DNA of 61,319 nucleotides, filler included, from Hausera hauseri (taxonomy: Eukaryota), in the NCBI GenBank assembly GCA_046269625.1. It is 10 parts of 10 records of this genome, joined end to end, with 100 filler letters (N's around TTAATTAATTAA, not from the genome) between each part and the next. Parts side by side here need not be neighbours in the genome. Positions count along the whole stretch, not along the records: positions 47,123 to 51,208 come from JBJURY010770538.1; 9 more parts are not named here. One strand, given 5' to 3'. The notes beneath the pieces were generated by a model. It had not been told where the DNA came from. It saw only the letters and a program-made list of their open reading frames with translations, and did not search any database. This document shows, piece after piece, positions 13,092 to 59,229 of this stretch (its first letter is position 1; every line of letters starts with the position of its first letter). The position numbers were made by a program, and so were the translations under genes.

Positions 13092-14330
13092 TCAGTTTTT
13101 TGTAGCTGGTGAGTTTGGCCTGCTATTTTGTAAGTTTGTAGTGTTGATTTTATTGTGCGTGTTGTAGTTACAGCCAGTTAGGCATTTTTGTGCTATTGTT
13201 CCAAATTTTTCGTGATAGATGCAAACGATGTTGCTTGTATTAAAATCGGGGGAGTAAAATTTACAACCGATGCAGCATTTCGGAGCATTGTTACCAAATT
13301 TGTTGTTATAGTAACAAATAGACGACCGCACGGGCGAAGGCGACCGTCTTTGTTGTTGATGAAAGACATTAGGGGAAGCAGCCCTAGAAAAACCTCGTCG
13401 AGGCAGCGTTAACTCATTTAATTTCTCGTTTATGTTATTAATTGTTCTTTGCAAAATATCACTGTCTGAGCGTAATTGCGCAATTTGTTGCTGCAGCAAT
13501 GCATTTTGTTGTTGGTGGTTTGTTGTTAATGCCTCAGAGATAGTTGGTGCCCTGTGAGTGTAGCACATTATAAGCTTTTTCTGCCAGTTCGGATAACTTT
13601 TCCACTGCCGTGGAGTCTTCGACCACAGTGAGCAAAGCTTCTATTTGAAGGGGCAATGCGTTTGAAAAGTAACGGCAAAGAAGTTCTGGACTATGCTCAG
13701 ACGTTACGCCAAGGGTATTGAGGTGAGACAAAGATGTGAGCAAGAATACAGAAGGCTTCTGAAGGCCCATGGCGTTGTTATTTAAAAACCTTTGAATGAC
13801 AGAGTCGATTGACGGCTCAGTGAGCTTAAGAACGGCATTATAAAGTTAAGCATATGGATCGGTGTGGTTAAGGATGTCGATAATGTTTGTCATTTTGGTT
13901 TTGATAAAAGCAGGTAAATTAAAAAACAGGCTGTTGGCTTTGGATAAGGGGTCGACGACGTTTTGTGATTGTAGCCAGAACTGGTGCAGTTTTAGCCATG
14001 TTTGGCTAGAATTTTGGCTGTCGAGAAAATATTCTGTGCAGAGCGAATGAGCAGGGAGTGTGTGCTGTGTCTGAGTGTTTTAAGCAGTTTGTTTGGGTAA
14101 GTAAGTGATGGATATTGGTGGTTTCGTGGGGTTGTTCGTGGTATCAATAATTGGTGATGAATCCATGCCACCGCGGATGCGGAAGTGTATGTGAAGATAG
14201 ATATAGGATAAAGAAAATTGCAGGGTTCCAACGATGGGTACCGTGGAGTCGAAGTATGTGAGGTAAAGTCAGGTGAGCGAATTAAATTGGAGATGGCGTT
14301 GTAGTGTCTAAGTGTGTTACTGCGTCCGTA
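13092..14330 (-). pseudogene. gag: Frameshifted gag of the CsRn1-like element
   Basis: ORFs 13992-14333, 13534-13770 and 13092-13568 join into one Gag with a coiled coil and two tandem Cys/His knuckles. Confidence 0.75.
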
Positions 14331-20200: not shown

Positions 20201-21573
20201 AAATTTTTTTACCACTTTCTTTAATGAACGTCCTCCACAAGCGATTCGGTGGTCTAACTAAACCCATATCTTCTGAGCCAATTTGTATCCCATACCTCCT
20301 TTAATGGTGTCGGTTTGATTATAAATGGCAGATGAAAATCAGGAATTCTTAAAACTGGTTCGCTTGTTAAAATTTGTTTCATTTCGTCGAAAGCTTTCTG
20401 TTCGACGTCTGTTCACTTCCACATGATTCCTTTCTTAAGTAGACGATATAACGATGCATTTATTTTCGAGTTAACTGGAACATAAGTGGCACAGTATCCA
20501 CACAATTCTAACCAATGTCTTAATTCTTTCTGGTTTTGTGGATCCATACAACCTGATATTTTATTTAACAATGATTTATCTTATCTCGATCCTCCGTTTC
20601 CAACTATATGTCCAAGGTAAGATACTGCGTTTTGAGCCCACTTTCATTTCTTAGGATTTAATTTCAATCATGCTTGCTCTAATAGCATGAGGATATCTTC
20701 AATATCCTTCAAGTGCTTTTCTTCCTTTCTCGATGCTATTATTACATCGTTTAAGCAGGCAAACGCACGATCCAGTCCCATTAACAATTTATTCATCATT
20801 CTTGTGAAAATAGCTGGTCCAGTTGTGGTACCGAACGGCATGACATTAAATTCCTATACACCATTGTGTCTTTCAACTTCGTTTTTTATCGGTCTTCATC
20901 TTCAACTGATTAGTAGTTCTTGATTATTTGTATGGGGTTCTAGGTTTCGAAAAGTTTGCATTTTTTGAGTTCGACCCTACTGTTGATTGGGTTTCTATAT
21001 TTTGAGGTAGTTTTGGAGAACATAATACTTTGTGGTCATCCACTGACTGTTGGCGACAAGGTGCAGAGTTTTCTCTATACTCTTGCCTTTTCCGTAAAAC
21101 TCCATAATGTTTCGTTCCTTCATAAGGGTTTTCGAAACTAAATGGCCTTCTATAGATTTCTGTTTTGTACGAACTCATTGATCGTTTGTCACAGTCTTCA
21201 TAGACTGGTGCAGTCTGAGGCAACATAGGTAGTGGTGGCTTTATAACACAATGCGTCTCGTGTCTGTTTATTCTGCAAATGGCATCTCCACCCTTAGGCT
21301 CGTCATCATCCGGATTGTTTTTCTCATTTTGGGGTTGAGGAATTTCCGTCCATATAAAAATAGGGGTTTTCTTCATTGTTTGCGATTACGATAGCCAATA
21401 TGTCGTTCTACATTAGATTTGGGCCTAATTTCTCCGTAAGTTTTCAGAAATTTTCCGAACGCTGTTATAATTGCAGTCAAAATTTTGTTTGAAAATCCCG
21501 TTAATATAAATATCTAATATCCGTTTATAAATGCTTGAATTACTACTTTGATGAACTGCACTATGAATTAGAT
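17254..21573 (-). mobile_element. Decayed Ty3/gypsy element, same family as 51309-56753: glycoprotein tail - linker - (PR and RT N-half deleted) - RT C-half - RNase H - integrase - membrane-protein ORF
   Basis: Collinear with contig 9 (FINGY.IFILTGFSNKILTAII, DDDEPKGGDA, PPLPMLP, FNVMPFG, SVTELEKLAVKEAL, TDHKSL, RGPYEI, GYNLRS); many stops and frameshifts. Confidence 0.9.
17268..18580 (-). pseudogene. Post-integrase type I membrane protein-like ORF with FN3-like motif
   Basis: Hydrophobic ISYVQIILALSLIVSYI in frame with integrase; Cys-containing ectodomain; Thr-rich linker; LLKPQSDYVIQIYAK (FN3 L-x-P-x-x-x-Y-x-x-x-V-x-A pattern); TM-like FPILSIIGLSTFVPMLVATFQLIA. Confidence 0.6.
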
Positions 21574-36622: not shown

Positions 36623-39457
36623 TTAATTGCGTATTGTCGTACGTTCCGTTTGCGGAAGTACGGACGTTGGAGTAATGTACATTTCAGTTTTGAACGAGGT
36701 TGGGTCATATACTACGGTAGTGTGCATATTGAATGGATCAATCTTCTCGTAGTTTTCTCGAAGTTTGTCTACTTCTGACATGCTTGGTACATCTTGTTGG
36801 ATAGGATCTTCCATATCGGAATCATGATAGCCGAATGCGGGTTTTGCATTTGATAAGTGGACTATATGTTCATCGTTGTCGTGCAATATTTTGGCGTTGT
36901 GCTCAGTCATTTCTGAAATTGTAGCGACCTGTATAATACGTTTCAAAACCGTGTCTATGTTGGCCTTTGAGCCAGACAAAGGACGCATCTTGTATATTCT
37001 TGGGCATGATTGGTTTTTTGTGATTGTTGTGGAATGCAGGGTTCGTGTCTATTGACAGGAAATGCTTCCGAGCTTGGTTGCGAGCAGGAATTGAAGATAC
37101 TTCTACGTTGCTCACCATATCTTGCGGGAATGTGAGGTGGGCACCAAATAATATTTGTGCCGGAGAGGCATCAGTGCTAGTGTTCGGAGTGTTTCTCCAC
37201 CCTAATAGCACAATGGGTAATGCATCCAGCCACTTCTTGTTATCGTGGCATAGGATTCGTAAGGATAATTTGAGTGTACGATAAAATCGTTCAATCAAAC
37301 CATTCGCCTGTGGATGATAAAGCGATATATGTATATCCTTTGAACCAAGCGATTTGGTTAATTGGTTAAACTTGGCTGATTCGAATTGGATACCTTGATC
37401 TGTTATAATGTTTAGGCAATCCAAACCGAGAAATCCATGTATTTAGCAATACATCTACGACGCTTTGCGTTGTTATTTGGCGGATTGGAATGGCTTCGGG
37501 CCATCTTGTTTTTCGGTCGAGAATGGTTAAGATGTACTGATATCCGTTACATTCGGGAAGTGGTCCTACTATGTCCATGTGGATGATTTCAAGCCGTGAG
37601 CCAGTAGGATAGTGTAGGATTGGTGGTTGTATAGTCTTTTTGACTTTATACTGTTGGCAAAGTGAACATTCTTTTATCCACCGCTTTATGTCGCTTAGCA
37701 TGCGAGGCTAACAAACTCTACTGCTTAATAGGCGAGCTGTGGCTTTTGATCCAGGGTGATGGATGTTGTGAATAGTGTCAAATGCCTGTTTCCGTAGGTT
37801 TGCTGCCAAAATTTGGCGTGGACAACCACTGAGGATGGTATTGTAATGTATTCCATCCTTTGTGTCGACTGTTTTGAAGAACATAACATCGTCTTCATAT
37901 GGAGGGTTCGATCGCGGAACCTCTTCCGTAAAAATGAAGTCAAAGGATATTGTCGATATCCCAGTTCTGCAAAAGAAATCAGAAACTGTGTTATCTTTTC
38001 CAGTTATGTGTTCTATCTGGAATGAGAATTTCGACAGAAATGAGATGTGTCGCTCTTGACGAGGCGATTACCTTTTCATACTTATCATGTGAATGAGTGG
38101 TTTGTGATCCGTGCGGATTGTGAAAACGTTTCCTTCGAGGAAATGTCTGAAGTGTTTGACACCGAGAATAATTGCTGGTAATTCTCGGTCGAAAGTTGAA
38201 TAGCGCTGCTCGGCCGAATTGAATTTGTGCGAAAAGAATTCAATGGGAGCATTTTTGCCATCTATTGACTGGGCAAGCATGGCACCTGCAGCGATGGTGG
38301 ATGTATCTGTTGTTAAGATGAACGATGCATCTCGTTTAGGATAGTGTAGTGTAGGTATGTGAAGAAACGCCCTTTTTACATTGGCAAATGCCTGTTCAGC
38401 TTCATCCGTCCAGTTTACCTGGGATTTCTTGGGTACTTGGCTTAGAGCAGATAGAGGTGACAGGATTTCCGAGCAGTGCGGAATATAGCGATGGCAGAAA
38501 TTTATCGTTCCAAGGAAGCTGCGAAGTCCAGTCACTGTGGATAGCTTCGGTATTTGTTTGATGGTCTCTAGTCGCTCAGGAAGAGGACTGTGGCCATGTG
38601 GTGTTAACCGAAGTCCGAGAAATACGGCTTCAGTTTTAAAGAATGAATATTTGTTTATGTTGAACTGTAGGTTGTTTTCATTCAACCTATGAAACACATG
38701 TTCGAGGTGTGTTTTGTGAGTCGCTTCATTGGGTAATGCAATCAATATATCATCTATATATGGGATTACATAAAGCATGTCGATGAGGACTTGGTCTATA
38801 TGGCATTGGAATGTTTGATTTGCATTCCGTAAGCCAAAAGGCATGCGTATGTACTCGAACAAACCAAAAGGCGTTATTACGGTCGTTTTTGGATTGTCTT
38901 TGGTAGCCACTGGAATCTGGCGATGCAATATGTCGGTTACCAACGGTGTTGGGTATGAATCGTGGACGATGACGTTATTTAACATTCTGTAGTCACAACA
39001 AGGCCGGTATGAACCGTCCTTTTGAGAACCATGTTCAATGGTGATGCCCACGGTGATGTAGAGCGGCGTCTTATGCCAGCTTCAAGGTGTCGGAATTCGG
39101 CTTCCGCGGCTACTTTCTTGACAGGGTCAAGCTCCTTCCGGGGTTGCCGAATCGGTCGATCACATGATGTAACGAAAGTGTGATGTTTTCACCTCTTTCT
39201 GTGTTGGTTGTGTTGAGCGTTTCAACAAGTTAGAGTATTGCGCTTGCAGCAATGGTGCGATATCAATGGGATTTGCGATTTTTATGCCCGTGACCGCGTT
39301 TATGGTTAGTGTGAATGCGGGTGAAGGTAATGGATTGCTTCCGCTGATGAGTTGTTGATTTCAGCAATCAACTGTGAGATCTTAGTGATCTAGGAAGTCA
39401 GAACCGAGGATTGGTTGCATGACATCGGTCAATATGAATGACCAAGCGTATGGTCGG
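36623..39457 (-). mobile_element. pol: Decayed CsRn1-like Ty3/gypsy pol (protease end, RT, RNase H, integrase)
   Basis: PILGSDFL, YRPCCDYR, ITPFGLFEY.RMPFGLRNA, YIDDILI, LTTDTS, YSTFDREL, TDHKPL, HMDIVGPLP, RWPEAIP, TDQGIQFES and YHPQANGLIER. Confidence 0.92.
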
Positions 39458-40650: not shown

Positions 40651-43600
40651 TTATGAGACATAGAATTTTGTAAAAATTGTTCTTGTTTTTCTAAGCTTTT
40701 GATTATTTAAAGAAAGCTTTTCAATAGATGCAATGTACGCTTTTAAGTCAGATTCTCTAAAATTATTCCATGAAGGGCTTCTTTCACTCCATTTCATCTT
40801 GTGGATATAATATTTAGCTAAAATTACAATGAGATTAACTAAGTAAATCTCTTCTGAAGAGAAGGTAGAATTGTTGAAAATGAGCAAAATTTGTAAATTA
40901 GACAAAACAATATTTTTTCTAACTTTTGTTGTCAGAAAACATTGTACATCTGACCAAAATACTACAACATGAGGACATTCTACAAACAAGTGTTCAATAC
41001 TTTCACCTTCATTCTGACAAAAAGAGCAGTTGTTACTAACACCAGGAAAGAATCGACAAATATTATCTTTAACTGGGTAATATCTGTGTACAACTTTGAA
41101 TAAGAATTCTTTGATCCTATTGTTGAGTATATATTTATGAGGTAACAAAAAAATTCCATCCCACATTTTTTTGCTTAAATTATCCCATCTATATTTACAT
41201 ATGGGGACAGATAAAGTCTCTAAATGATTTCTGATAAACCCATTTGTAAATTTCTTATGCATTATACTAGTTCCTTCAATTGAAATTGAATCAAGTAAGT
41301 ACAACTCATCAAGATGTATATTTTGCGCTAAAGACTGTAAGCTTATCGGAATAGACTTTATGACCAAATCAAATTCAATCAGAGGAATATCTATATTATT
41401 GTGACTTAAAAACCGTTCATAGTTATACCATTCACTATTACTGTCGAGTAATTGGTTTACCAAATTAATATTGTTTTCAACCCAATTATGTAAATATAAT
41501 GATTTGTTTTTATGCAGTATATAAGTATTGTTCCAAATGATGCAATTATGTGGAGAAAAGTTGTGTTTGTACAAGAGAGCCCAACAGAGAAGAACCTGCT
41601 GATGAAATTTAGCTAATTTTACTGGAAGTTTTCCAACTGCAAAAGGACAACGTAATAAAAAATTTAATCCTCCTAATTTATTAAATAAATAATTTGGGAA
41701 AATATTCCACATAGAATTTTGATTTTTTAGAAATCTTTTAATCCAATTAATTTTTATAATCTGATTAAAGATAGAAAAAGTTAGTACATTTAGACCTCCT
41801 TCAGCTAATGGATTTGAAAGAATAGATTTTTTAAGTTTATGTGCCTTATTTTTCCATACAAAGTTGAACAAAATCTTATCAAGGTCAGAACATAGAGTTT
41901 TACTGACCTCTAGAGAAGAAAAGACATATGACGCTCTAGACATTCCTTCAGCTTTGCTTAATAACACTCTACCATAAATGGTTAAATCCCTAGCTAACCA
42001 ACTATTGAATTTTTTTTAATGGCTTCATGAACAGATGTAAAATTATTGCCCATATTAGAGTGTTCTTTAGAAATAATAATTCCAAGATATTTAACAGTAT
42101 CTCTTAAAGGGATATTGCAAATTTCAGTATTATCAGTTGTAAATAGGGGCAAAATTTCACATTTTTTAAAATTCAGTTTCAATCCTGAAATGTTAGAGAA
42201 TTTAGATATAACAGATAAGGCTACAGGAACTTCACCAGAATTTTTTAAAAATAATGTTGTATCGTCAGCAAGTTGTGAAATTTTAAGTTCTTGATCAAAT
42301 ATTTTAATTCCTTCAAAAGAGCTTTGTCTAATTAAATAATTTAAAATTTGACCTACAAGCAGAAATATGTACGGTGAGGCCGGACAGCCCTGACGAACCC
42401 CTTTACTAATATTAAACCGACCAGATGTACCATATAAAAGTTTTACAGAGCTATTATTATCTCTATAAATTGTTTTAAAGGCTTTAATGAAAAAGTTACC
42501 AAAGTTGAAAAACGACAATGTATCAAAAATAAAATTATGGCTAACAGTATCAAAAGCCTTTTGATAATCTAAAAAGAGAATGATTGGTTTACCAGGTATG
42601 AGATCTCTATAATCAACCAAATCTAGAACTAATCTAATATTATCAGAGATGTTGCGTCCAGGCATAAAACCATTTTGAGATTCATGAATTATATCATTTA
42701 AACCATTTTTTAATCTCTTAGCTAAAATAGAAGCCAAAATTTTGTAATCATTATTTAATAATGTGATGCCACGCCAATTATCTATAATTAAAAGATCCTT
42801 ATGTGGTTTGGGAATTAAAGTAATAAGACCCTGTTTCATTGAGGGGGGTAACTCTTCATTATTAATAGATTCAATATAAACTGCAAGAAGGAATTCTGAT
42901 ATTTCTGATGAAAATTTATGGTAAAATTCTGAGGTTAAGCCATCATTTCCTGGTGATTTGTTAAATTTTAAGTTTTTAATGCCCCATTTTATTTCCTCAA
43001 TAGAAAATATTTCATCACAATCTTCTCTTAGAGCATCGTTAGCTTTGTTCACATCTTTTAATGAATTTAAAATATCTGAGCTATCTGTACAATTGTCCTT
43101 TTTATAAAGATCCCTATAAAAATTTGACACATAATTTGAAATTAAAGAGTAATTTTCTGTTATGGAACCATTAATGTTTAGTTTAGTTAAGGATTTCTTT
43201 TCCATATTTCTTTTTTCCATGTTAAAAAAATATTTGCTATTTTTTTCACCTTCCTCAATCCATTTTAATCTAGACCGAATAAAAGCGCCACAGGCTCTTT
43301 CTTTATATATTTCATCTAAATCTTCTTGATATTTATGTAGCTGAACTAATAAATCTTCATCATCTGACATAATGGAAGTGAGATCTGAAATAGATTTAAT
43401 TAATTGCTTTAATTTTTCTTTTTTTAAATAGTTAATTGTTTTGCTAAATTGAATTACAACTTTTCTAATTTCATATTTAAGCAATTCCCAATATTTTCCA
43501 AACTGATTGTTAGTTAGAGCTAATGTCCAGTATTTTTTGATTAGGTATTGGATGAGTGAAGTAAGTTCTATATTATTTAATAACGAACTGTTTAGTTTCC

Positions 43601-44350
43601 AAAGGTTAAAACTTCTTCTTTCTTCATTGGAAAACTGAAGTTTTAAACAAATAGATTTATGATCAGTTAGAACAGCAGGACAAATTTTAACCTCTGATAC
43701 TTGTCTCTCCATTTCCTCGGAGATCAGCCAAAAGTCAATTCTAGACTGAGCTGAAAAAGTTCTGTTACTCCAAGAGTATTGTCTGTCAGAAGGATGACGA
43801 TGTCTCCATATATCTAATAGATTCCAGCGAATAGAGAAGTCCGTGAGATGGTTCTGTCCATTTCTTATTCTTGAGGGATGTCTATCCAGTTGAGTGGACC
43901 AAACCATATTAAAATCTCTGCCTAAAATAATCTTTGCTGAAGGAAATTTAGTACAAAGAAAAGTCATATTGTCCTCTAGCTCCTTCAAAAAACACATATT
44001 CAAAGAATCTGAATTATAACCATAAACATTGCCCAGTAAAAATGTATAAGAATTCAATTCAACCACTAATAAAATCCAGTGGCCCTTTTTATCAGATGTG
44101 ACATCTAAAACTTTACCTTTAAAGTTATGTTTTAATATTGCTACACCTGCTGACTTATTTGAGCCATGTGATAGCCATATATTTTTGCCCCATTGATTTA
44201 ACCAAAAAGATTCATCTTCCAAACATGAATGACATTCCTGAAAAAAAATAAAATCAGTTTTTGACTCTTTAGCGAAAATAAAAAAAGCTTTTCTTTTTAT
44301 ATTACGCAGACCCCTTGTATTAACAGATAGAAAAGATAACTCCAGAATAC
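40651..44350 (-). pseudogene. LINE ORF2p (APE endonuclease, RT, zinc finger) with one frameshift
   Basis: NTRGL, FFQECH, GRDFN, SRIDFWL, TDH, KSPGNDGL, FLDYQKAFD, GVRQGCP, QLADD, KAEGMSR and CSFC..E..EHLFVEC. Frame break in the T-run near 42010-42018; no clear ATG. Confidence 0.93.
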
Positions 44351-44480
44351 CTTTTCTTTACGAACCTTAAAGAAAAGTGATTTTATAAAACGTCAACCAT
44401 TTAAAGTGACTCCTAGCACAAAATTTGAAGCCATTAACAAAACCATGTTAAGGGTAGAGGATATTGTTAACTGAGAGATG

Positions 44481-45302
44481 TCATTGATCAGATGCACATC
44501 GAATCTCCCTTCCATCCACATAAGCTTTGCGTCCCACGAAGTAGGCCCTCTTTCCAATTTTGCGCGCCTGTTCAATGACAGGCCACAAAGCAGATCTGGC
44601 ATCCTTGTCTTCCTTAGACAAATCTTCACCAAAACGAAGTTTGTTCTCTCGCAGGTAGCTGTTATCTTTAGCACTCCTCCAGATGATATCCCTCACAGAA
44701 CGGTAAGCAAATAGGATGATGACCACTCTGGTTTTTCCATCAATTCGCTTCCCCAGACGATGGACTATGTCGATACCTTCATTAGCTTTAGGTCCTAGAT
44801 CAGGTGCAATTTTGTGACAGATATCTATAATCTTCTCCTTCACATTTTCATTTTCTTTTTCAGACAATCCATACAGACGTAGGCACCATCTCCGCTTGTA
44901 ACGCTCTGCATCTGCAACACGCTCCTTCAACTCTTCCATTTGTGCTTCTATCTTCTCATTTTTGTATTTCAGCATGCAGTTTTCCTTTTTTAGCTCTTCA
45001 ATTTCACCATACATGAATTCAATAGATGTTTTAATATCTTTAATGTCAGCCTTTACCTCCTCTGCCTGGTCATTGATTGCTTTCAGTATGGAGTGTAGTG
45101 AAGGTTGGGCCTCACTTCCGCAGGATTTTTTCGGAGCTGGGCTGTTGCTCGGAGAGTCCGGGAGTGGCGAGAAATCAGGATCAGAGTCCAACATTGAAAC
45201 ACCTTTTCCATCAGAATAGTTGTGGTCAAATATCTTGTTCACTGTTGTGACTGGTGTTCTGTTCTTTCGTTTGTTTTCTTCCTTTTTTCCGTGATCACCC
45301 AT
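44481..45302 (-). CDS. LINE ORF1p (coiled coil plus RRM/CTD, Transposase_22-like)
   Basis: 273-aa intact ORF: ERYKRRWCLRLYGLSE, IDIVHRLGK, RFGEDLS and RAYF. Confidence 0.9.
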   Translation of the reverse strand: MGDHGKKEENKRKNRTPVTTVNKIFDHNYSDGKGVSMLDSDPDFSPLPDSPSNSPAPKKSCGSEAQPSLHSILKAINDQAEEVKADIKDIKTSIEFMYGEIEELKKENCMLKYKNEKIEAQMEELKERVADAERYKRRWCLRLYGLSEKENENVKEKIIDICHKIAPDLGPKANEGIDIVHRLGKRIDGKTRVVIILFAYRSVRDIIWRSAKDNSYLRENKLRFGEDLSKEDKDARSALWPVIEQARKIGKRAYFVGRKAYVDGREIRCASDQ

Positions 45303-45787
45303 CTTTATTATCTGTCGAATGCTTCAGCTAGCTTACTTGGTATCGGAGTTCAGCTTACTTGCTAACAAAGTCTTACTTTATATATATAAAGGCATGTGGC
45401 TTTTACCTCGTTTTTGAATAGCACCAGGTATGATAGGATATTATATGAGCATTTCCGTCCACAATTGGCTTCTCAGAACTCGTTCAAAAAGGATTGGAGT
45501 CCACTTTAACCAGAGACGTCTTAAAAAGCGTCTGAACAAGCCGCCATCTTGCGCGCCCCCCGCCGTCAGCCATAAAATGAACACCATGTATGTTTGAACA
45601 TAGATCTGTGATTTATTCCAATGGACTATATGCCACGGGCAGTGGTGACGTACTTCTGTTAAAATTTAAGCCACGTCGATCACTTCCGGCTCCTACCTAC
45701 TGCTGTTGTTTTTAGCGTTAGCTCCTAGAACTAGACCATGTAAAAGACACAAAAGGTAAAACATCTGCGAGCTACTGGTACAACAAG

Positions 45788-46167
45788 TGAGTTTTGTTGT
45801 GTGCCGTTGTGTCCAGTGAATAGCAGGTACAGTAGAGCGCTTAGTTTTTTACATTTTACTGCCACGATTCGTGGCTAACCGCAGGGAAGACTTAGCCATT
45901 AAAGCTAACACTCGGGTTTGTAGCCAGTGTTTTAAACCTCAGGATATTCAAGAGCCAGCGTCAGAAACAAGAAGACAGTGGTTAAAAAGGAGCTGTACCT
46001 GCATTGTTCCAGTGGAATAAGTTCTCCTTCCACCTGCACGACCGGGGGTTTGGGAGAGAAGCAAAGAGGACAGCGAGGAGGAGAACACAGCAGCTGCAGC
46101 TCTCAGTAAGAAACACGATTATGTCTCGACTCCTGACCCTGCACTTGTAGATTTGGTGTTGGAGTAA
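45788..46167 (+). pseudogene. THAP zinc-finger remnant of a DNA transposon (Harbinger/Kolobok-type accessory gene)
   Basis: EFCCVPLCPVNSRYSRALSF...NTRVCSQCFKPQDI...LK.GAVPALF across frameshifts, followed by a KHDY motif. Confidence 0.7.
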
Positions 46168-47122: not shown

Positions 47123-48215
47123 ACAATTATAAAGGAAAATTAGTCATAGTTGTCCCCCAAGAAGATATAAAACTTTTGTTAACTCATTACCACAACAGTA
47201 TGTTGGAAGGACACCAATCAGTAAAACGGGCCTTAGGAAGATTAAAACGGAAGTATTATTGACAAAATATGCTTAAAGATGTAGACGATTAATGCAAAAG
47301 TTGCTCTATATGTGCAAGAAGGAAAAATATCGGCTCAAAAATTAAAGTCCCTTTGAAACCATTAAAATGCCCATCAGCCCCAATGGAATTCTCGGCAATG
47401 GATATTCTGGGACCAGTGCCGATGACAACGAACGGATATAAGTGTATGCTAGTATTCGTCAATTTATTTTCTAGTTGGCAGGTTGCAATCCCAATTTCAG
47501 ATCAAAAGGCACAAACTATTGATCAGGCTTTCGTAGAAGAAATTATATTTAATTACGGGGCACCCGCAAAGTTACTAACGGATCAAGCTCCAAACTTCAC
47601 CGTAGAAGTAATAACGGATATATCAAAAATGTTCCAAATACTACATTTAAAAACAACCCCATATTATCCAAAAATTAATGGAACGGTAGAAAGATTCAAT
47701 GGAATTCTAAATAATATGTTGGGTACTACGGTTAACGAACGGCAGGTGATATGGATGAATACATCAAGCCTCGCTTGTTCGCCATCAGAAACACAATCCA
47801 TCCTATAACAAAAGAAATACCATTCTATTTGATGTATCTCAGAGAAGCTCACATGCCGGTCGATTTTGATTTTAAGATGTCCGTTTCCAATTTGAATGAT
47901 ATGGAATATAAAAAATTACTGGATGAAAAACTGGGATATGTATGGGATCTAGCATCACGACATATAAAAATTTGTCAGAAGGAATATAAAGCACAATATG
48001 ATGAAAAAGCAAAATCACACAACCTTAAGCCTGGAAATAAGATTATGTTACACACTCGTCTAAGTAAGAAAGGAAGGACTCTGAAATTGGACAGACCATG
48101 CAAAAATCCATAAACGCTCCAACAAATGGATGAAACTAACACCTATCTAATTAAGAAAAAGCGAAATAAAATGAATCCAATAAAAGTCCATGTGAAAAGA
48201 TGTAAACGCGCACCA
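47123..48215 (+). pseudogene. Ty3/gypsy integrase
   Basis: HHCC zinc finger, DDE core and C-terminal domain across ORFs 47353-47808, 47751-48113 and 48126 onward. Confidence 0.93.
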
Positions 48216-48239
48216 ACAGTGTCAAAGATAAGGAATGGC

Positions 48240-49437
48240 AACTCCAGATCATTATCCATAGCAACACTCTTAATGATAAGCTTGATAACATGTATATTAG
48301 TTGAATCTTTAGATGTAACGTATAAAGCTGTCCAGGTTGGAAGGTATTCTTGTATAAAAATTAAGGCTAATCGAAACTTAACAACAAACGAGTATATATA
48401 CATATTTATATAAAAAATACCTTTGATATATAAAGCAACACCTGAAATTGTGATCTATATTATAATCACTCAACTCATACCTATTGTGGACTTTCATTTA
48501 AAGTATCTTATAGAATCCAATACGCAACTGGGAGAAGAGGTCAGTGGTACAGATCATATTTTTCATATCCTGGTACGACTCACTACTTCTACGAACCATA
48601 CTTTCGTGTTTCATTTTAGACCAAAATTATGAAAAATGGACCATGTGTGACGGCGGAATTAGAAGCTGCAATAACAAAGTACCGATTTGTAGAATACTGC
48701 ATCGAAAACAAAACTGACATAAGTAAATGTACACCAAATTATCAAAACCCACATTTATTCTGCCCCTTTCCAATTGATAAATAATATCAAATATATTATT
48801 GGACCACAGTCGACGGTTACACATGGTCAAGGGTGTCAGATGGACCAGAAGTAATTTAAAGATCCCCACACTGACAACTGCCTCAAATAAAACGATAATT
48901 GCTACCACAAAATTACCAATAAAAATAGTGACTGAAGCCACGAAAAATTATAAAAGAATTATATGTTACGCCACATTCACTTACCATTACCGTATCGAAC
49001 TTGAAGAATACAAATATGAAATTTGAGTGTTTCCTCTATCATGGAATGGTTAGTGAGGAAGTATAACTCCAGATGAACCCACATCCGTATGCACATCCTT
49101 GAAAGACGATACAAATTAGAAAGTGATTATAACAGAATTGGATGAGGATGGACGAAATATACAAACAGTTTATCGCATGGAAAAAACTCTAAAGCGAATA
49201 ATTATGACACCTATGGAAGTCACAAAAATAGCAACTATACAAAACCACCACAAAAGTAAAGATAAATATTTTTGGATAATTATTGTACTGAGTATTTTTC
49301 TAGTATTACTAACCATAATTTTACCTTTAACAATCTACTATTCTAAAATAAGACGGCGACAACGTAGGATAAAAGAAATATTAAACCAGTTAAAACTTTT
49401 AAGAGAAGATTCCAAAGACAAATTACAGAGGACATAA
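48240..49437 (+). pseudogene. Post-integrase type I membrane protein-like ORF
   Basis: Signal-like SLSIATLLMISLITCILVES in frame with the integrase tail; Cys-containing segments; Thr-rich linker; strong TM YFWIIIVLSIFLVLLTIILPLTIYY followed by basic stop-transfer KIRRRQRR. Confidence 0.7.
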
Positions 49438-49724
49438 ACGCGCCTAGTAATAAGATCCAACAAATATTTAAACGGCAAAGTTGTCCGTTAATGGAGAAAC
49501 CACAAGCTAAAAAGTTGACCAATCCTAAATGGCAAAATTGTCCGTTGACTCTCCTCAACGATGAGAATTGATTAACTAAACGACAAGAATGTCGAACAAT
49601 AAATGCGGTCGTGTATTATTGTACTAAAATACAAGATAAAGCCGCTAAATTCTTCATCTCAACAAAACTACAAACTAAAGATTCGTCTGTCCCTATTCCT
49701 TTTTCTAAATCTTTTTGATTGATA

Positions 49725-50040
49725 ATTATTTACCTTTCTTTAGTCAAAGAAGGATCAAAAACTGTGGGAAGAATCAAGTCATTTTACTTCAATGTTATTA
49801 ATAACCTCAATTAAACAACTAATAAAGATTATACATACTACGGAAAGGCAACTCTTATTCCCAACAATTTAAAAGGACGTCTTCATCAAAGATCCGGATT
49901 AACCATAAAATTGTCTACTACGTCAACAAAATTAGCAGATGTAATCGATATCTCTAGCTGAACATCAGTATATATATCACTAGCATAATGAAGTCTTCAA
50001 ATAAAAAGTAGAGCTCATTTAAACGAATTTACGGATACTC
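49725..50040 (+). pseudogene. Trimeric dUTPase-like remnant (not in the ORF track)
   Basis: KIIHT-GKATLIPNNLKGRLHQRSGLTIKLSTTSTKLADVIDISS*TSVYISL..LQIKSRAHLNEF parallels dUTPase LIPTG..I.IP.GYYGRI.PRSGL..K..AGVID.DY.GEI.V.L..IKKGDRIAQL; RSGL at 49890-49901. Confidence 0.65.
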
Positions 50041-50228
50041 TTGATGTTCCAACATTAACTACTATTCGCCTGAACAAAAGGTTTTATAAAAATGCTACAA
50101 TTATACTCCAGACGTATGGCGGTCCACCCCCGATAATCTACGTTAAAGTAACTCAGAAAAACTTTCCCTCAAATTGAGTATGAAAAAACCATCTATCCTT
50201 CAAATCTACCCAGTCCAGATCAACTTAT

Positions 50229-50740
50229 ATGTGGAACATCTTTTCTCGATTACCACTCGTATCAGAAACCAAGATGGTTATAATAGCAATAAACTCTGTT
50301 TATTTGTTAACGCCACTACGGAATAAAGAAATAACTCTTATAGAATTAACTGTCATCGATCTAAAAGGAAATATTATCTTGAATGAAGTCAGTACTCCGC
50401 GTGATCGAGTCGACAATTTCAACAATCAGATCACCGGACTCAAAGAAATAGGCGTAATAGGACAAACTGATCCACATCAGATCAGATCTCTTGTCAGTAA
50501 AAAACTTAATGACAAATTAATTACCGGAATGGACATTTACAACGTAAATCTGCATCTTGATTTACTCGATATCAACTCAATACTTGAGATTAGACATTTG
50601 TTCTACCACAATGAGATCAACCCAGAAAAGAAGTTGAGGCAAAGCAGATCCTGACGAAATTCCATGATATCGTGTATCCCCTCCGCACTAGACAGAAAAC
50701 CGTGACAATGTTGAATATCTACAAATCCATTAAAGAATAT
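50229..50740 (+). pseudogene. DEDDh 3'-5' exonuclease of ISG20/REX4/AEN type with degenerate catalytic residues
   Basis: IIAINSV...LIELTVIDLKGNIILNEVSTPRDRVDNFNNQITGL...IRSLVSKKLNDKLITGMDI..TMLNIYK parallels REX4-type VAIDCEMV...LARVSIVN..G.VVLD.YVKP...VTDYRT.VSGI...V..ILKG.ILVGH..TM.LY. Confidence 0.75.
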
Positions 50741-51116
50741 AAGAACAAAAATGATGATTCCCAAGAATCACCTATTCAATCACAACCGGATAGACAGAAG
50801 ATGAAAGGAGTAGATAACAAAAAAAATAATATGTTGAACAGAAACATGAATGGAGAACAACTGAATAAATGTAATTTCCTAAATATGAACTTTTGAAAAA
50901 GCTTCCACATAGACTCAAGCTCATCTTATAATTCACACAGATAACCATGGTCATGTTATTCAACCTAACGCTTCCAGTGGTTTGACAGGGCCACCTAGTG
51001 GTCCAACTCAGTTCTACACACGTTAATGACAACATCTGTCTGTCACCCAAAAATCAAGTGAAATGATAAAAAAGATAAAAGATGGCACACCTTCAAAGTT
51101 TTACACAAGAGCAGTT

Positions 51117-51208
51117 AGAGGATGAGGAGCTGTGAAGGTGTAAACGGAAGCTGAAGCACTAGTGAAAGCATCAGTATTTGTCTGGCACGGATGTCCCTGT
51201 GTGGGCTC
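51117..51208 (+). repeat. Probable polypurine tract and start of the 3' LTR
   Basis: AGAGGATGAGGAG-C directly followed by TGTGAAGG at 51131; cut by the contig end, so no second LTR is available for confirmation. Confidence 0.5.
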
Positions 51209-51308: not shown

Positions 51309-54300
51309 AGGAATTCGTCCCAATCCTTTTGACCTTTTGCAACTACGGTTGACAATATTCGTATCACAGTAGCATTCATGCGTTCAACCATTCCATTACA
51401 TTGAGGATGGTAGGCTGTCGTAGTCAACCTCTCAATTTCAAATATTTTCGTGATTTTATCGAACAGCTCACTGGTGAAATTTCTCCCTCGATCAGTCAGT
51501 ATCTGATCTGGAGATCAGTATCTACAGATAATTTTCCTTACTACGGCTTCGGCTAATGTTTCTGCTTTCTAATCATATAGTGCCACTAACTCCACAAAGT
51601 GAGTTAGTCGATCAACGCATGTCAGTATATATCTGTTATTTCTGTTATATGGTAATGCGATGTCCATCGACATAGCTTGCATTGGTCTGTCTGGTACAAT
51701 TATTGGCTTCAGCTCTGCTATGTAATTCCGCATTTTCCTCTGCTTAGTCGCGCATACTTCGCAAGCGCTTTCCCAATTTTTCACATCAATATATACTAGG
51801 CCAATAGTATTTGTTTAGCGTCCTATTTAACGTCTTTTTCCAGGACATGTGCCCAGCTAGATACGAATCGTGTTCGGCCATTAAAACTTCAGTTCGTAGA
51901 ATTTTGGATATAACTATTAATTTCCTTCCTTTTCGTTCATAATACAGTACTTTTTTATTGTTCTTGTTTTCGGAGACACAATATTTATGTCCATGTCATT
52001 GTAAATGTTTCCTTAACTGGTGGCCTTTTGGCATTACGTCTGCTTCAGCGCATTCCATGATTTATTGGATAACTCGATCCTTCTTTTGTTCGCTCGAAAT
52101 TCTAATTGCTCCGTCTGACGCTAAAGTTCGTTCTCGGTCTACTAACTCTTCGAGCTGGTTTTTCTTCATTGTCATTATAGCACTTGTTTTCGTTTTCAAT
52201 CGTGACAACGCATCTGCATCAACGTGCTTCGCACCAGGTTTATATTGAAATTCAATATTATACCTCGAGATTTCTTCGATCCATCTATTAAACTTACACG
52301 TAGGGTTATTTGCTCGTCCCTTTAAAGTCGTAACTGCTTGTTATCGGTAATTATTATTATCTTCTGTCCATATATGTAAACGTTGAAATGCCTTAAGGCT
52401 TCTTTTACTGCTAATGTTTCTAATTCTGTCACTGAATAGTTTCTCTCTGCTTTCTTTAAGGAGCGCCCTCCATAAGCGATTGGATGTTCTAGTTCTTCGT
52501 CCTCGCGCTTCTGTGCCAACTCATATCCGATACCTTCTTTACTCGCGTCTGTTTTAATAATAAATGGTAAGCTAAAATTAGGGTATCTCAGTACTGGTTC
52601 GCTAGTCAGTATCTTTTTCATTTCGTCGAACGCCTTTTGTCTGACATCCGTCCATCTCAACTTAGTTCCTTTTTTTAATAACCGATACAATGGCGCATTC
52701 ATTTTTGAGTTATCCGGTACGTAAGTAGCATAATATCCGCACAGGCCTAACCAATGTCTTAGTTCTTTCTGGTTCTGTGGTTCCATACAGTCTGAAATAT
52801 TATTCAACAATGATTTGTCGAGTTTTGATCCTCCTTTTTCAACTATGTGGCCAAGGTAAGACACGGCGTTTTGAGCCCATTTGCATTTCTTTGGATTCAC
52901 TTTTAACCCGGCCTTCTCTAATCTCATGAGAGTGACCTCAATATCTCAGATGTTCTTTTTCGTCTTTTGATGCAGTCATTCCGTCATCTAAGTACGCAAA
53001 TGCATGTTCAAGTCCCATTAGCATTTTATTCATCATGCTCGTAAATATGTCTGATCCAGCGGTAATTCCAAATGGCATAACGTTAAATTCGTATACTCCG
53101 TTATGAGTTTTAAATGCTATTTTATAACTATCTGCATCTTCAATCTCTACCTGCCAATATCCGGATTTTAAGTCCAGCGTGATGAACCATTTTGCTCCGG
53201 AGAGCCTATCTAGAGCCTCTTTCACAGATGGTAAGGGAAAGGAATCTTTCATCATGAGAGTACTTAGTGCTCTATAATCGATACAAAATCGATGTTTCGT
53301 GGTACCTTTCTTTTTGACCATAAAAATAGGTGAATACCAAGATTTGAAACTTTGTCGGATTATATCCGCTTTGAGCATCCGTTCTATCTCCTTGGTGATA
53401 TCTGGTCTTAAGGAGTGTGGCGGCGGATACCATTTTGGCATTTTCTGTTCTTCGAAATCAATCTCATCGTTGGAACCAGGCTTTTTCTTAAGTGGTACAG
53501 TTAACTCTAATGCTTTTTCTCGGCCAATGTTTTCGTCCTTGGCAATGATTGATTTATATCGACATAATAATTCGTAAAACTGGCAATAAGCTTCTGGTGA
53601 AAACTTCGTATCGATGTGTGGTGGAAATTCCGCGTATGTATATGGTTTCTCTTCAACCGTTATTGCTGATACTTTGTAAGTATGTCCTAAAGTAGTGTTA
53701 GCATACAGTCTTATTGGGGTTGAAGCATTATTCACTATTCTGACTGGTATTCGGCCAGACGCTACTCGGGTTAATATATTGCTCAATATTATATTAGGAT
53801 TCAATGTTACTTTCGGCTCAAAGTACACTGGTAAATCGTCGTCTTGACAGATTTGCGCGAATATCAACAATTCCGTTCCAGGCGGAATGTTTTCGTCGAC
53901 CGAAATCCATACCTCTCCGAATTCTCTTTCTTTATTAACCTTAGTTCCCTTTATCGGTCCGAGTTCGATTAATTTCGAGGTATTCAAATCTACTGCAACA
54001 TTTGGTAGGCGCATTAATATATCACAGCCTAACACTACGTCATCTGTCAAGTGTTCCATTATAGAGAATTCATGTTGGAACGTTTGTCCCATTATCTTAA
54101 GATTAGGGTTCCACTTAAATTTCGGTCTTGACTCTTGTCCGAAAGCTCCTATACTTCCGGGGTCCGTTGCTAGTGGTAAACATAGTTGGTTCCGTAATGT
54201 TTTTGGTATCGATCCGTCCTTTATAAATGATTTCTCTGGTCCGGTATCTACTAGTGCGTATACTTCTCGATCGTCAATACTAATTTTGGCGAAAGGTCTA

Positions 54301-54740
54301 CCTTCTTTTATCATAGATTGTCTAACAACGGATATCTTGTACCCATTTATACTAATTTCTGGTGCTTTATTCTCTGCTATCTGTCTTAATTCCTCAATGG
54401 GATATAATCCGTTATTTACATTATTTTCACTGTCTCCATCTGGAGTATTGATTAGCGGTTCTCGGTTGTTTTGGTTATGGAAAGATCGCATTCGTGGATT
54501 ATCCCAAATTGATGATTTAGTTTCTATATTTCGCGATATCCTTGGAGAGAATATCACCTTGCGATCATCCATTGGCTGGCGGAATAATTCGGATTTTTCC
54601 CTGGTTCGGTAAATTTTTCGTAACACGCCGTATTGTTTTGTCCCTTCATAAGGATCCTCATAGTTGAAAGGCTTCCGATAAATTTCCGAACTATAGGAGT
54701 TAATATATCTTTTACCGCAGTCTTCGTATTGTGGTGCCGA
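51309..54740 (-). pseudogene. pol: Ty3/gypsy pol (aspartic protease, RT, RNase H, integrase), frameshifted
   Basis: ALVDTG, VLGCDIL, RFCIDYR, LDLKSGYWQ, FNVMPFG, YLDD, KTDAS, YSVTELE, C..C, MSMDI and TTAYHPQCNGMVER. Confidence 0.95.
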
Positions 54741-54899
54741 GGGGGCAGCATAGGCAAAGGCGGCCTGGGCGCCTTACGACTGCCTATCTTGGAGACCGCG
54801 TCTCCTCCCTTAGGCTCATCATCATCTGAATCGTTTCTTCGAAATTTTGTATTTCTTTGTCCTATAAAAAATATAGGTTTTCTCTTCCGTTCCCGATTA

Positions 54900-56753
54900 T
54901 AGTAACCAACGTGTCTCTCGACGTCGCTTTTCCATTTGTTTTCTTCGTACGCCTTCAAAAATTTTCCAAACGGTGTTATGATTGCGGTTAAGATTTTGCA
55001 TGAAAATCCGGTTAGAGTAAATATTTCATAGCCATTTATAATGGATTGAATTATGGCCTTTATCAGTTGCACCAAGAAGTAGATGGCTAAAAATCCGGAT
55101 GCAGCTTGTCCAAAAATTAGACATCTTCCCCGATTTTATATAGTATCTCTGTACTGACTCTGATAATGATTAACGCCAAGTAGGGATTCGCATTTTGCTT
55201 AATAGCGAGTATCATCCACCACCGGCGACATAGCTCTACTTAGTTCATGTGTACGCTGTCGAGGGAAAGCTAGGAATTGCCTAAAAGTCTCGATTTTCTT
55301 TGGTCTGTAAATCCCTTTACTTGCGGTGTCAGCGAATTTATCATCCGTTATACTCCTTAACAAATTTGTCCCGGTTAATTTGCTACGTGTGGCTGTTCTT
55401 CCTCCATTTGGTAAACCTACCCAGTCTGTCTCAGTTCTCTTTTACATGGATTCTCCTAAACCTGCTTTTCATTCCTTCAAAATCGTTGGTGGGTCAAATT
55501 TTCCACCAAAACGCTTGTAAGTGGCATCGCCAATCTAGGCATATTCTGGTATAGGACTGGTAAGTATTGAATACAACGTTTTTCTTCTACGTTTATAGAT
55601 ACATCCCGTTTTTCACATTCGTAGGTTAACAGGGCTTCCCCAGTAACTCTTCCGAAAATTTCTTCATTCATCGGAATTACAGGTGCCGCTAGTTCTAGAT
55701 TTGCGTAGACCAAGGCTAGTTTGATCAACATAATTTCTATATCCAGTTTACAGTCATTTGCGATCATCTTGTGATATAATTCTGCTAGTCTAATTTGTCC
55801 TTTATAATAAAAGTAATCATCCCTATTTTTCAAGTAATCATCTATTCTTACATCATGTGTTTGAAAAACCAAAGTAGTTATTGCAGCTTCTGCCACAAAG
55901 AATGCTTCATAATTGGTGGCGTACATTACTACGTTACATCGAGAAAGCATTTGATTCTTAATAAACTTTAAACCGTGATTCTCGGATATCAGTATCGTGG
56001 GTGTGGACTGTTCAGCTACGTCCTTCCTTGACCTGGCATCATTGTCAGTTGTGTCCACATATCTTTTTCCCGTGGTTTCATCAAAATTTATTTCTTTTAT
56101 CTTAATAAAGTTACAATGGTTCATAGGTGGTGGGGTCCAAATAACTGTCGAATTTCGGAAAGTATAGGCACCGTCTTGGATATGACACTTCTGGTTTTCG
56201 GTATGTTTTTGTAACACTATGGAACATCATCTTTTGATTCCTCATTTCTGTCTCATAGAAATCGACCACTAACATTCTGCCTTCTCTTCCTTTTCCCGTA
56301 TCGTATTCACCTCATTTACGGTATCCGGTGTGCATATCTAGTTTCCCAACTGCTACTTTATGCACTCAAATTATTTTTCCTGGTTGGGCTTCTAACTCCA
56401 TCCCATCTCAACTCAATCTTCCGGTTTCTTTGGCTTGTTTACACTGCTGTTGGTCTAAATCCATAGGAATTAATGGAGTCGTTGGTTTTACTATCGATAA
56501 ATGTCCGTACATATTCCAACAGTAAAAAATACTTCGTGATTGTCGCAATATGCACTTTATTCCGTCTATTGCGATTAGTTCGCGCTGTTGATACAAAAAA
56601 TACTTTTTCTCAATGGTTAATAACTTGTGAGGTCTGGCGCCCTCGCATAACTGCAGATCCATCAATGTATAATTTTAACCTATTTTAAACTTATAACAGT
56701 CGTAGACCGTGATTGCACCGAGTTGTCTTATTAACATCATAAGTGTTATTAAT
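54900..56753 (-). pseudogene. env: Chuvirus-type (class III, gB-related) envelope glycoprotein, essentially full length, disrupted
   Basis: Signal-like LITLMMLIRQLGA|ITVYDC; YTLMDLQLC; KCILRQSRSIFYC; QQCKQ..ETG; C..QDG....NSTVIW....C; ELYHKMIANDC; RVTGEALLTYEC; CIQYLPV; GIY..KKIETFRQFLAFP; FGQAASGFLAIYFLVQLIKAIIQSIINGYEIFTLTGFSCKILTAI. Collinear with recalled chuvirus G blocks (GYDC, CK....RTIFYC, LY......C, GEV...KC, CY.ELPV, GIY...L..LR..IMFP, FG..SAG......IIHGY.L...YGWS..LLGA). Confidence 0.88.
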
Positions 56754-56853: not shown

Positions 56854-57185
56854 TGGGTGTGTGTGGGGGGGGGGGGGGGAATCGGAACAAGTGCCGAAAA
56901 TCTCAAAATGCGTTATTTTGGCTTACTTGGCACAATGTATTCATTTTGCGCATCTCCGTGACTATTTGATAATAAAAATTACTCAGATTTACAGTTCATC
57001 CAATTCGACCATGTTGTAGAACCGAATACGTAAAAATCAATACCACACATTTTGCAACGTTAGAATTGTCTGAATTTTCTGAGAAAGACTGAATAAATAA
57101 ATTTGTGACGTTTCTCAATATATTTTATTCATTGTACATTTGATAAAATTATAGTTCTTGTCCGACATTCTCTCATTCTTTTCAG

Positions 57186-59206
57186 GCTGCAAAAACTTCC
57201 GATGACTCGAACAGGGATGAAACTGCAACGAATTCCATTTGTATTATTTGTAAAAAGCAGATTTATTTTCTGGAAAAACTGACAGTCAGCGATAAACTAT
57301 ATCATCGTTCTTGTTATCGACAAGTTCAAATTGACAATTTGAAAATTCGGAACAGAACTCTCGAAAGACCGAAAGTCCAAGTCAATGAAATATCGGATCA
57401 TAACGAAAATGTACTGAAGCCCGACGAAAGCAATGCTGCAAATAACAAAGGCGATAGCAACAGATTAACACCGGAAAAAGTTCCGTCTCCTGTGAGTAAA
57501 CTCGACAATGATGAACACAAACCACCAGATTCGAAAACCATTAGGCCGATTGAAAGTAACCAAAAACCGATTATGAAGATTGACAATAAGATTCCAAATT
57601 TAACACTTCCAGAAAAGCTACCTCGCAAAACCACACCGACATCTTCATTTCGATCGAAAGATGAACCGAAGAAATTGACGGAGAATCTGTCGAAGTCGTC
57701 CGATATTCTCAACCAAAGCAACGATGTAAATAGTCTAAGTGAAGCGGCTAATGTGTCAGATGACAAGAGCATTCGCAAAAGATCTCTTAGTCCGAACCAT
57801 GTTACAGAAAGCAAAGAATCGAAGCATATTGATACACCATTTTCCAAATCAACTGACGATTTATCCAAAATGGAAAAGCCACAAAATTCCTCCCAGTTTC
57901 CTACTCACAGTCTTCAGAGTTCATCTGTCAACTATATATCCGTTAATGCTTCATCAATAGACTCATTAAATGATAGTAATTCGAGTTTGTTCAAAAGAAG
58001 TAAAGCCTTAGCATCGAATAATCTATCGGTGTCGAATTCTCTCTCATCGTCGTCATCTTGCTTGAATTCATCATTCAACAAAAAGCGCCATGCTCCTCTT
58101 CCTCCGAAAGCGCAAATAAACCTCAGTGAAATCCAGAACAGTAATAAGAAACCACAGATTCCCGATGCGGAATGCTTTTATCCCGATGAACTTAATCCGT
58201 TCAATTTACCCGAAGATAAAGACGTCAAACTTGAAAAGCCTAAGAAACCAGCAAAGCCAGTTAAACCGGAAAAGCCCCGAAAACCGGACAAACCAAAAAA
58301 CTTAAATCCGTTTGCGGAATTTATGGTAGACGAATCTAAAGATCTCAAAAATGTACTATCTCAAACGAAGCCGAAGAAGCGTACTGCTCCAAAAGTACCA
58401 CCAAAACCATCGGATAAAGACAGTCCAAAGGTCTCCGAACAAAGTCCGACGCGTAAAGGTGGAGATTTGCCAATCCCGGTAAAAAATGAAATATCGACGA
58501 AATCCGAATGTATAATCGAAATGAATACTATCAATTATGTTCCGGAAAACGTCAAAGAAGACACATCAGATTCAGAAAAACGAGAGTTGTTACCTGACAC
58601 GAATAAAGTCGAAGATTCCCAGAAAGAGTCAGATTATTTACAATTGGCCTGTAAAGAAGAAAAACTGTCAGATACAAAGACGATTGACGATACTCAAAAA
58701 GAATCCGAATATTCATTGTTAACAATAATCGAAGACAAATCTGTGAAATCTGACGAACAACCGAATGCCGATAGAAACCGTTCTTCTCCCGTTTCACAAC
58801 CTGTTGTTATTTGTAACATCAGCACATCTGTCATTCTAAACGACGACCAATTAGCTCTCCAACTACCAAGTAAAGAAAAGTCTCGATCTCAAGATTCTTT
58901 ACGAAAAACAAAATGTTTCCGAATCAGCCGACAAAAAGCACCGGCTCCATCTCGACCGGCACCAATGAAAAGAGAAGTTCGTGGTGATAAGAGTTTTCAA
59001 TTTGTTCCCTACGAAACTCTTCATGCGCAGTTGGAAGAAGTCAATCGAGAACTGTCACAGATCGAACAGAAAGGTCGGACGCTTCAAAATTCACTGTGGG
59101 AAGCCAAGGAAAATGATGAGAATTTCGAAGATATGCTTCAGGATTGGTTGGATCTAGTCAAGAATAAGAATGATTTATTTATGAAAGAACGGAATTTACA
59201 CGAAAT
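57186..59206 (+). CDS. MICALL: Large internal exon of a MICAL-like (MICAL-L) Rab/EHD effector
   Basis: Acceptor ttcag at 57181-57185; CIICKKQIYFLEKLTVSDKLYHRSCYR (LIM first finger); two NPF motifs (ELNPF, NLNPF); Pro/Lys-rich linkers; N-half of a bMERB domain (LSQIEQKGRTL..MLQDWLDLVKNKNDLFMKERNL). The ORF-track stop lies inside the donor AT|GTAAGG at 59207. Confidence 0.85.
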
Positions 59207-59229
59207 GTAAGGGATTTGTGTTTTAAATG

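Follow-up and report, generated by a model that had tools for sequence, protein, structure and literature searches.

The 4,086-bp contig at positions 47123-51208 carries the 3′ half of a gypsy retroelement in a decayed state; the element was likely an errantivirus with gag-env-pol order. In our best overall explanation, which we consider probable, a likely membrane protein comes after the integrase, then a single gene that joins a predicted cupin-type domain to a dead DEDDh exonuclease, and the final 430 bp are probably foreign DNA brought in by a misjoin. We hold the anatomy of the element as read here with higher confidence (Table 1). A preliminary description had proposed a complex, cargo-carrying gypsy element. 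This much of it stands: a membrane protein and a DEDDh domain lie behind the integrase, and an intact relative, locus L001, has the same gene order.

The window, the whole 61,319-nt stretch analyzed here (Hausera hauseri, GCA_046269625.1), consists of ten joined contigs, and the finding occupies exactly one of them (JBJURY010770538.1). This contig is flanked on both sides by artificial N44-TTAATTAATTAA-N44 linkers, so the sequences beside it in the window do not represent its genomic surroundings. It begins inside the integrase, and the RT and env regions are not on it. Parts of the contig occur in three runs. In X1 (organism A), 1,551 records match the contig, mostly 80-95% alike, showing a multi-copy family that includes the cargo region; X2 and X3 (organisms B and C) contain 3 and 6 matching records, respectively.

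Table 1. Features read on the contig, in window coordinates.
Feature	Position	Strand	Evidence
Gypsy-type integrase, truncated at contig start	47123..48215	+	Pfam, tblastn
Integrase, zinc-binding part	47152-47328
Integrase, core	47377-47670
Integrase, C-terminal part, in next frame
Decayed, likely type I membrane protein, behind integrase in frame	48216..49437	+	hydropathy
Spacer with short imperfect repeat (about 49469-49490 and 49528-49549)	49438..49766	+	sequence
N-terminal domain of accessory ORF, predicted cupin/double-stranded beta-helix barrel (previously read as dUTPase)	49767..50183	+
ISG20/REXO-type DEDDh exonuclease domain, catalytic residues absent, same ORF as cupin	50184..50731	+	Atlas, profile
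23-bp overlap, switch from element to other DNA, probable misjoin	50777..50799	.	X1, X2, X3 contigs
Tail with the previously read PPT-TGT, not established as the element's own	50800..51208	.	X1-X3 matches

Integrase and membrane protein

The integrase lies on the plus strand, as had been described, and is decayed, with stops and a frameshift near 47750. When stops were read as X, frame +3 matched Integrase_H2C2 (PF17921, E 2.6e-14) and rve (PF00665, E 7.6e-9). Using the L001 polyprotein as a tblastn query, we aligned 47146-47754 at 46% identity and 47748-48215 at 39%, the C-terminal part continuing in frame +2. A gypsy-type integrase at the end of pol is as expected of a Ty3/gypsy LTR retroelement.

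Behind the integrase, hydropathy supports a membrane protein as likely, in agreement with the earlier reading. A signal-like hydrophobic stretch (48249-48305) shares the frame of the integrase C-terminus and precedes an ectodomain of ~330 codons, now scattered over three frames, and a strong TM helix (49276-49332, frame +3) followed by basic residues. This predicted topology of signal-like stretch, ectodomain and TM helix is common to the L001 polyprotein (P0017) and to window contig 17254-21573. The window ectodomain shows no significant sequence similarity to its L001 counterpart (best E 0.30), so the two have the architecture alone in common. No Pfam family scored above cut-off in the membrane protein region, and a search for homologs of the L001 post-integrase tail recovered its own protein alone among 4,493 candidates. 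A single-sequence fold of the L001 ectodomain gave no reliable model (mostly beta, pLDDT 38).

Contig 17254-21573 (minus strand) is a sister element in its own right, in which the integrase is followed by an in-frame hydrophobic stretch (18571) and by another near the contig end (17339). Its RT/RH region is 71-80% identical in stretches to window 51309-56753.

An intact relative and known elements

L001 contains a single polyprotein ORF (P0017, 3,700 aa) that begins with zf-CCHC, Monjiviricetes_fusion (E 8.7e-84) and two protease-like repeats and continues through RT, RNase H, integrase and the membrane protein, with no dUTPase family reported. Downstream are a 222-aa ORF without a Pfam match, then a cupin-DEDDh ORF and, 2.5 kb behind the ORF, a candidate PPT-TG (13820-13836). 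The 222-aa ORF occupies the same place as the spacer of the window element and, at an E cut-off of 0.05, tblastn found no match to it in the window. Both L001/P0017 and window 51309-56753 have an env of the gB type, located between gag and protease. We note that the linkage of the accessory ORF to an env-bearing element is drawn from one intact locus, L001, whose available sequence stops short of the 5′ LTR, together with the gene order of the window. A metagenome scan yielded 1 locus out of 110 pattern matches, and viral_contigs scans with the window exonuclease, P0005, the window integrase, P0011 and P0010 as queries yielded no locus.

Two further features of L001 and one of the window were observed. 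The 222-aa ORF (9207-9875) is charged and likely coiled-coil. The aspartic protease domain is a tandem duplicate (3806-3893 and 4340-4427), a 72% identical repeat with two Pfam stretches. Window 51309-56753 (minus strand) is a sister gag-env-pol element, with Monjiviricetes_fusion at 55477-56223 (E 4e-10) and then protease, RT, RNase H and integrase.

GAG-ENV-POL Ty3/gypsy errantiviruses with an HSV/gB-type Env are described from Platyhelminthes, Nematoda and Bryozoa in the available portion of Chary and Hayashi 2026 (PMC13524379). L001/P0017 resembles these elements in its order of gag, Monjiviricetes-type fusion protein and pol, and its env resembles the Smed_errantivirus_1 row by eye. The gB-type env that characterizes them there is not on contig 47123-51208. 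As for cargo, the available main text mentions neither dUTPase nor exonuclease and the supplements searched mention no exonuclease, RNase_T, dUTPase or cupin, and we found neither the post-integrase membrane protein nor the cupin-DEDDh ORF described in that portion.

Bdelloid rotifers, too, have retroelements with a DEDD exonuclease ORF behind pol: their Juno and Vesta LTR elements and Athena terminons carry a DEDDy ORF3 (Rodriguez et al. 2017, PMC5408684). According to the accessible sections of that paper, ORF3 is RNase D/WRN-like with intact residues and is sometimes joined to GDSL, and the dUTPase lies between PR and RT; in contrast, the domain here is DEDDh (ISG20/REXO-like), joined to a cupin and represented by a dead branch, with no dUTPase. 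For ORF3, the same sections raise roles in 3′-end processing and silencing as well as the example of inactive DEDD proteins. The giant gypsy element Burro of planarians (Arkhipova and Yushenova 2019, PMC6431247) likewise has env in frame between gag and pol, within one huge polyprotein, and accessory ORFs. Going by the part of the source at hand, however, the env of Burro is gypsy-Env/F-like, PR and RT are separated by a dUTPase-like motif, and the cargo consists of BIR, BCL2, MATH and ankyrin, with no mention there of a cupin-DEDDh ORF.

Both the gag-env-pol backbone and the presence of DEDD exonuclease ORFs in LTR elements have thus been published before. We found neither a cupin-DEDDh fusion nor an integrase-fused second membrane protein in the literature searched, and Sacco et al. 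2022 (nematode gag-env-pol) or Repbase might describe them.

A single accessory ORF with a dead DEDDh exonuclease domain

The segments previously listed as dUTPase-like and exonuclease-like, two of what were taken for three distinct modules, belong to a single ORF by comparison with relatives and their family profile. Both are in frame +2, and their reported spacing is correct, 49890 to 50229 being 339 bp or 113 codons. We used frame +2 of 49434-50651 to search 1.84 billion proteins by phmmer and obtained 10 proteins; in 7 of these 10 (420-575 aa) a single chain covers both the dUTPase-like stretch and the exonuclease. When a profile was built from 11 relatives, with the window left out, it matched 49767-50627 as one domain at E 2e-35, a value that is partly circular because the window had served as query in finding the relatives. 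Each relative in this profile is a single open frame. The window copy encodes nothing intact, its accessory ORF having six in-frame stops and a probable frameshift near 50630.

More direct searches returned little. The cargo pieces of the window had no significant PDB match by phmmer (ISG20L2, E 1.5), Pfam searches of six whole frames and 11 contig pieces found neither dUTPase nor RNase_T, a word-based homolog search with the exonuclease piece gave 0 of 30 candidates, and Rfam had no match in 49400-51208 at E 1.

The DEDDh assignment of the exonuclease-like segment is upheld by the family profile and by Atlas, which placed it in the RNase_T cluster (0.90) with all 10 of its 10 best named matches in one family or clan. 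An RNase_T (PF00929) profile and a DnaQ-like fold were both found for the exonuclease domain. In the RNase_T check proposed earlier, the window pieces lacked a Pfam match and the Atlas cluster was positive. The domain runs in frame +2 to about 50630, with the remainder probably in frame +1 (50621-50731), where similarity to P0001 is weak (E 0.024).

Judged from the alignment, the catalytic D, E, D, H, D residues, present in 7 of 11 relatives, have been lost: the window has A, N and V at Exo I and II and, by weak alignment, L and K at Exo III. Simple decay is argued against by two relatives on the dead branch, P0001 and P0003: although deeply diverged, they keep their ORFs open over 447 and 562 aa. 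As the tree is unrooted and the window branch long (1.6), the dead group may be a product of long-branch attraction.

Human ISG20 and ISG20L2 and plant SDN1 (PDB 1wlj, 7yw5 and 5z9x) have the same fold and are the closest sequence relatives. Unlike these, the domain here is element-encoded, fused to a cupin and, in the window branch, devoid of catalytic residues. A functional analogue is the arenavirus NP ExoN, an Atlas neighbor at 0.87 (bioRxiv 10.1101/2021.02.01.429129, in the portion available).

Possible roles of the 3′ genes

We hypothesize that in the parent element gag and protease were separated by an env of the gB type and that the polyprotein would be threaded twice through the ER. 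The post-integrase protein would then be cut off at the hydrophobic stretch and become a second surface protein. Herpesvirus gB-type Env needs partner glycoproteins, and a second membrane protein behind the integrase bears on how a gB-type Env could work in such elements.

The exonuclease may derive from a REXO/ISG20-like gene acquired from the host. Where the motifs are intact, the exonuclease would trim or destroy RNA 3′ ends, most likely those of element-targeting small RNAs or dsRNA; in the window branch it would act as a non-cutting RNA-end binder or decoy. The dead domain would thus likely bind RNA without cleaving it. A counter-defence role for the accessory protein is our tentative proposal and could well be wrong. 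The fuller idea, of gag-env-pol errantiviruses as complex retroviruses with an undescribed 3′ cassette, is unlikely to hold in its entirety. In it, a second surface glycoprotein released from the integrase end would mediate attachment in partnership with the gB-type fusogen, and the cupin-DEDDh protein would suppress host RNA silencing, at first by enzymatic destruction of small RNAs or dsRNA and later, in the window branch, as a decoy that does not cut.

The accessory protein might instead serve the element's own replication, through RNA 3′-end processing, primer/cDNA trimming or RNP assembly, with the dead branch being a structural RNA chaperone or relaxed. We consider this somewhat less probable than counter-defence. 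ISG20L2 is an RNA-processing enzyme according to its PDB title, and for the DEDDy ORF3 the accessible sections of Rodriguez et al. (PMC5408684) suggest 3′-end processing and give no clear departure from neutrality; most gypsy elements, however, replicate without an accessory protein.

Proteins with a predicted cupin barrel and a DEDDh exonuclease constitute a real retroelement accessory family with motif-intact and motif-dead branches. With these branches, a natural protein pair is available to address whether counter-silencing nucleases or decoys are encoded by animal retrotransposons themselves.

The 3′ end and a probable misjoin

The PPT-TGT junction and LTR previously placed at the 3′ end lie beyond 50777-50799, where the sequence switches and where public contigs part the element from what follows. 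Among the matches listed for the junction pieces (12 of 25; a bridging contig may exist), one X1 piece equals 50611-50799 with 0 differences and then continues into 115 other letters, and another equals 50777-50980 with 0 differences and has 28 other letters ahead. In X2 and X3, the agreement of the 4.7-kb contigs is confined to 50777-51072 (0 and 2 differences, respectively), and they leave the window sequence on both sides. Element and tail sequences have just the 23 bp of 50777-50799 in common. Further on, 51073-51168 was matched in none of the 3 runs, a gap that by itself proves nothing, and for 51169-51208 the match is to another contig from organisms B and C.

The simplest reading is that element DNA was probably misjoined with DNA of a co-sequenced organism, and the PPT/LTR most likely does not belong to the element. 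No match to a strict PPT pattern occurred near 51100-51140, although this pattern is weak, as the L001 candidate also escaped it; that the purine-rich stretch around 51110-51135 is this element's PPT is not established.

Alternatively, the junction could be real, produced by template switching or recombination on the 23-bp microhomology, in which case the tail would be captured DNA and not an LTR. X1 does contain both sides, but an exact copy of each continues into other sequence there, contigs from two runs are 99-100% identical to the tail and match the element only over chance-sized lengths of 33-42 bp, and the last 40 bp match yet another contig. We regard a real junction as improbable. 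If the join of 50777-51208 is artefactual, other findings of an LTR fused to a host gene in this assembly deserve a contig check.

The N-terminal domain is a predicted cupin

We predict that the N-terminal domain of the accessory ORF is a cupin-type barrel. Models of a relative, P0005, from Atlas and AlphaFold2 match cupin/AlkB-type folds over most of this domain, consistent with a double-stranded beta-helix (DSBH); P0005 is 24% identical to the window over 112 aa of the exonuclease part. The window domain has six in-frame stops, and the family N-domain profile scored 40.0 bits on it, compared to 7.1 for the best of 300 shuffles. Cupin/DSBH enzymes carry a His/Glu or HxD...H metal site. In a sequence comparison of 7 N-domains we found no such site: the single well-kept His/Asp/Glu is one His, in 6 of 7, with Tyr in P0001 and the window. 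The predicted metal-free cupin might be a dimerisation or binding module.

The dUTPase previously assigned here lacks Pfam and PDB matches. A 47-aa look-alike (49839-49979) reached 10.9 bits against the dUTPase profile and outscored all 300 of 300 shuffles. The earlier reader thus did see something, but the shuffle test is inflated because the stretch was picked by eye for its dUTPase resemblance. Intact relatives do not display it: their N-domains scored at most 2.2 bits (8/8), compared to 89-163 bits for true dUTPases left out in turn (11/11), and hhalign gave the family N-domain a probability of 0.1% against dUTPase. The suggested profile search found no PF00692 in the window piece, in 10 of 10 relatives, in L001 or in the P0017 Pfam list. 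The dUTPase invariants D32, R71-S72, G87/D90/Y93, R116/Q119 and G145/G150 (alignment A4) are not present as a set; the window holds merely RSG and D-V-I-D look-alikes, and among intact relatives R alone is constant. No dUTPase occurred among 41 Foldseek, 50 VIA and 10 Atlas rows, an absence that is weak as exclusion.

The domain could still be a dead, dUTPase-derived one fused to the exonuclease, with the models confusing two beta-rich folds. Catalytically dead dUTPase-derived proteins have a precedent in the dUTPase-related proteins of herpesviruses. I-P-N-x-L-K...R is conserved in 7 of 7 relatives where dUTPases have I-P-x-G...P-R-S, and RS is retained by the window and P0001. Against this, two independent models predict cupin/AlkB folds for most of the domain and profile-profile comparison shows nothing, making such an origin very improbable.

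Separate dUTPase and exonuclease genes, forming a cassette before the 3′ LTR, are largely refuted and hardly credible: the look-alike resembles dUTPase motifs 2-3, and dUTPases occur in rotifer, fungal and planarian LTR elements, but 7 of 10 relatives have one ORF, the family profile fits the same 49839-49979 stretch at 40 bits, and retrotransposon dUTPases sit between PR and RT in the available parts of PMC5408684 and PMC6431247.

With the supposed dUTPase being the predicted cupin domain of the exonuclease ORF, no nucleotide-metabolism cassette is evident. From the combined nucleotide-metabolism and RNA-processing cassette proposed earlier, the DEDDh relationship survives, without its catalytic residues. 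The present reading thus removes a false claim of a dUTPase after integrase and an apparent LTR that is probably a product of misassembly.

Other contents of the window

Several other elements were observed in the window. A nearly intact L1/Tx1-type non-LTR element (40651-45323, minus strand) encodes an ORF1 of 280 aa and an endonuclease-RT of 787 + 454 aa, and is accompanied by a THAP-like fragment, recognized by eye, near 45730-46010. The non-LTR element looks fish-like and may, we presume, derive from a co-sequenced organism. Env-less gypsy pol fragments of other families, with a gag-like frame, lie at 36903-39081 and 13095-13640 (minus strand). By eye, 9092-10403 (minus strand) holds fragments of a Polinton-like protein-primed DNA polymerase B, and a 687-aa open frame with LIM-like and bMERB-like ends (57147-59207, plus strand) resembles a MICAL-like/EHBP1-type host gene.
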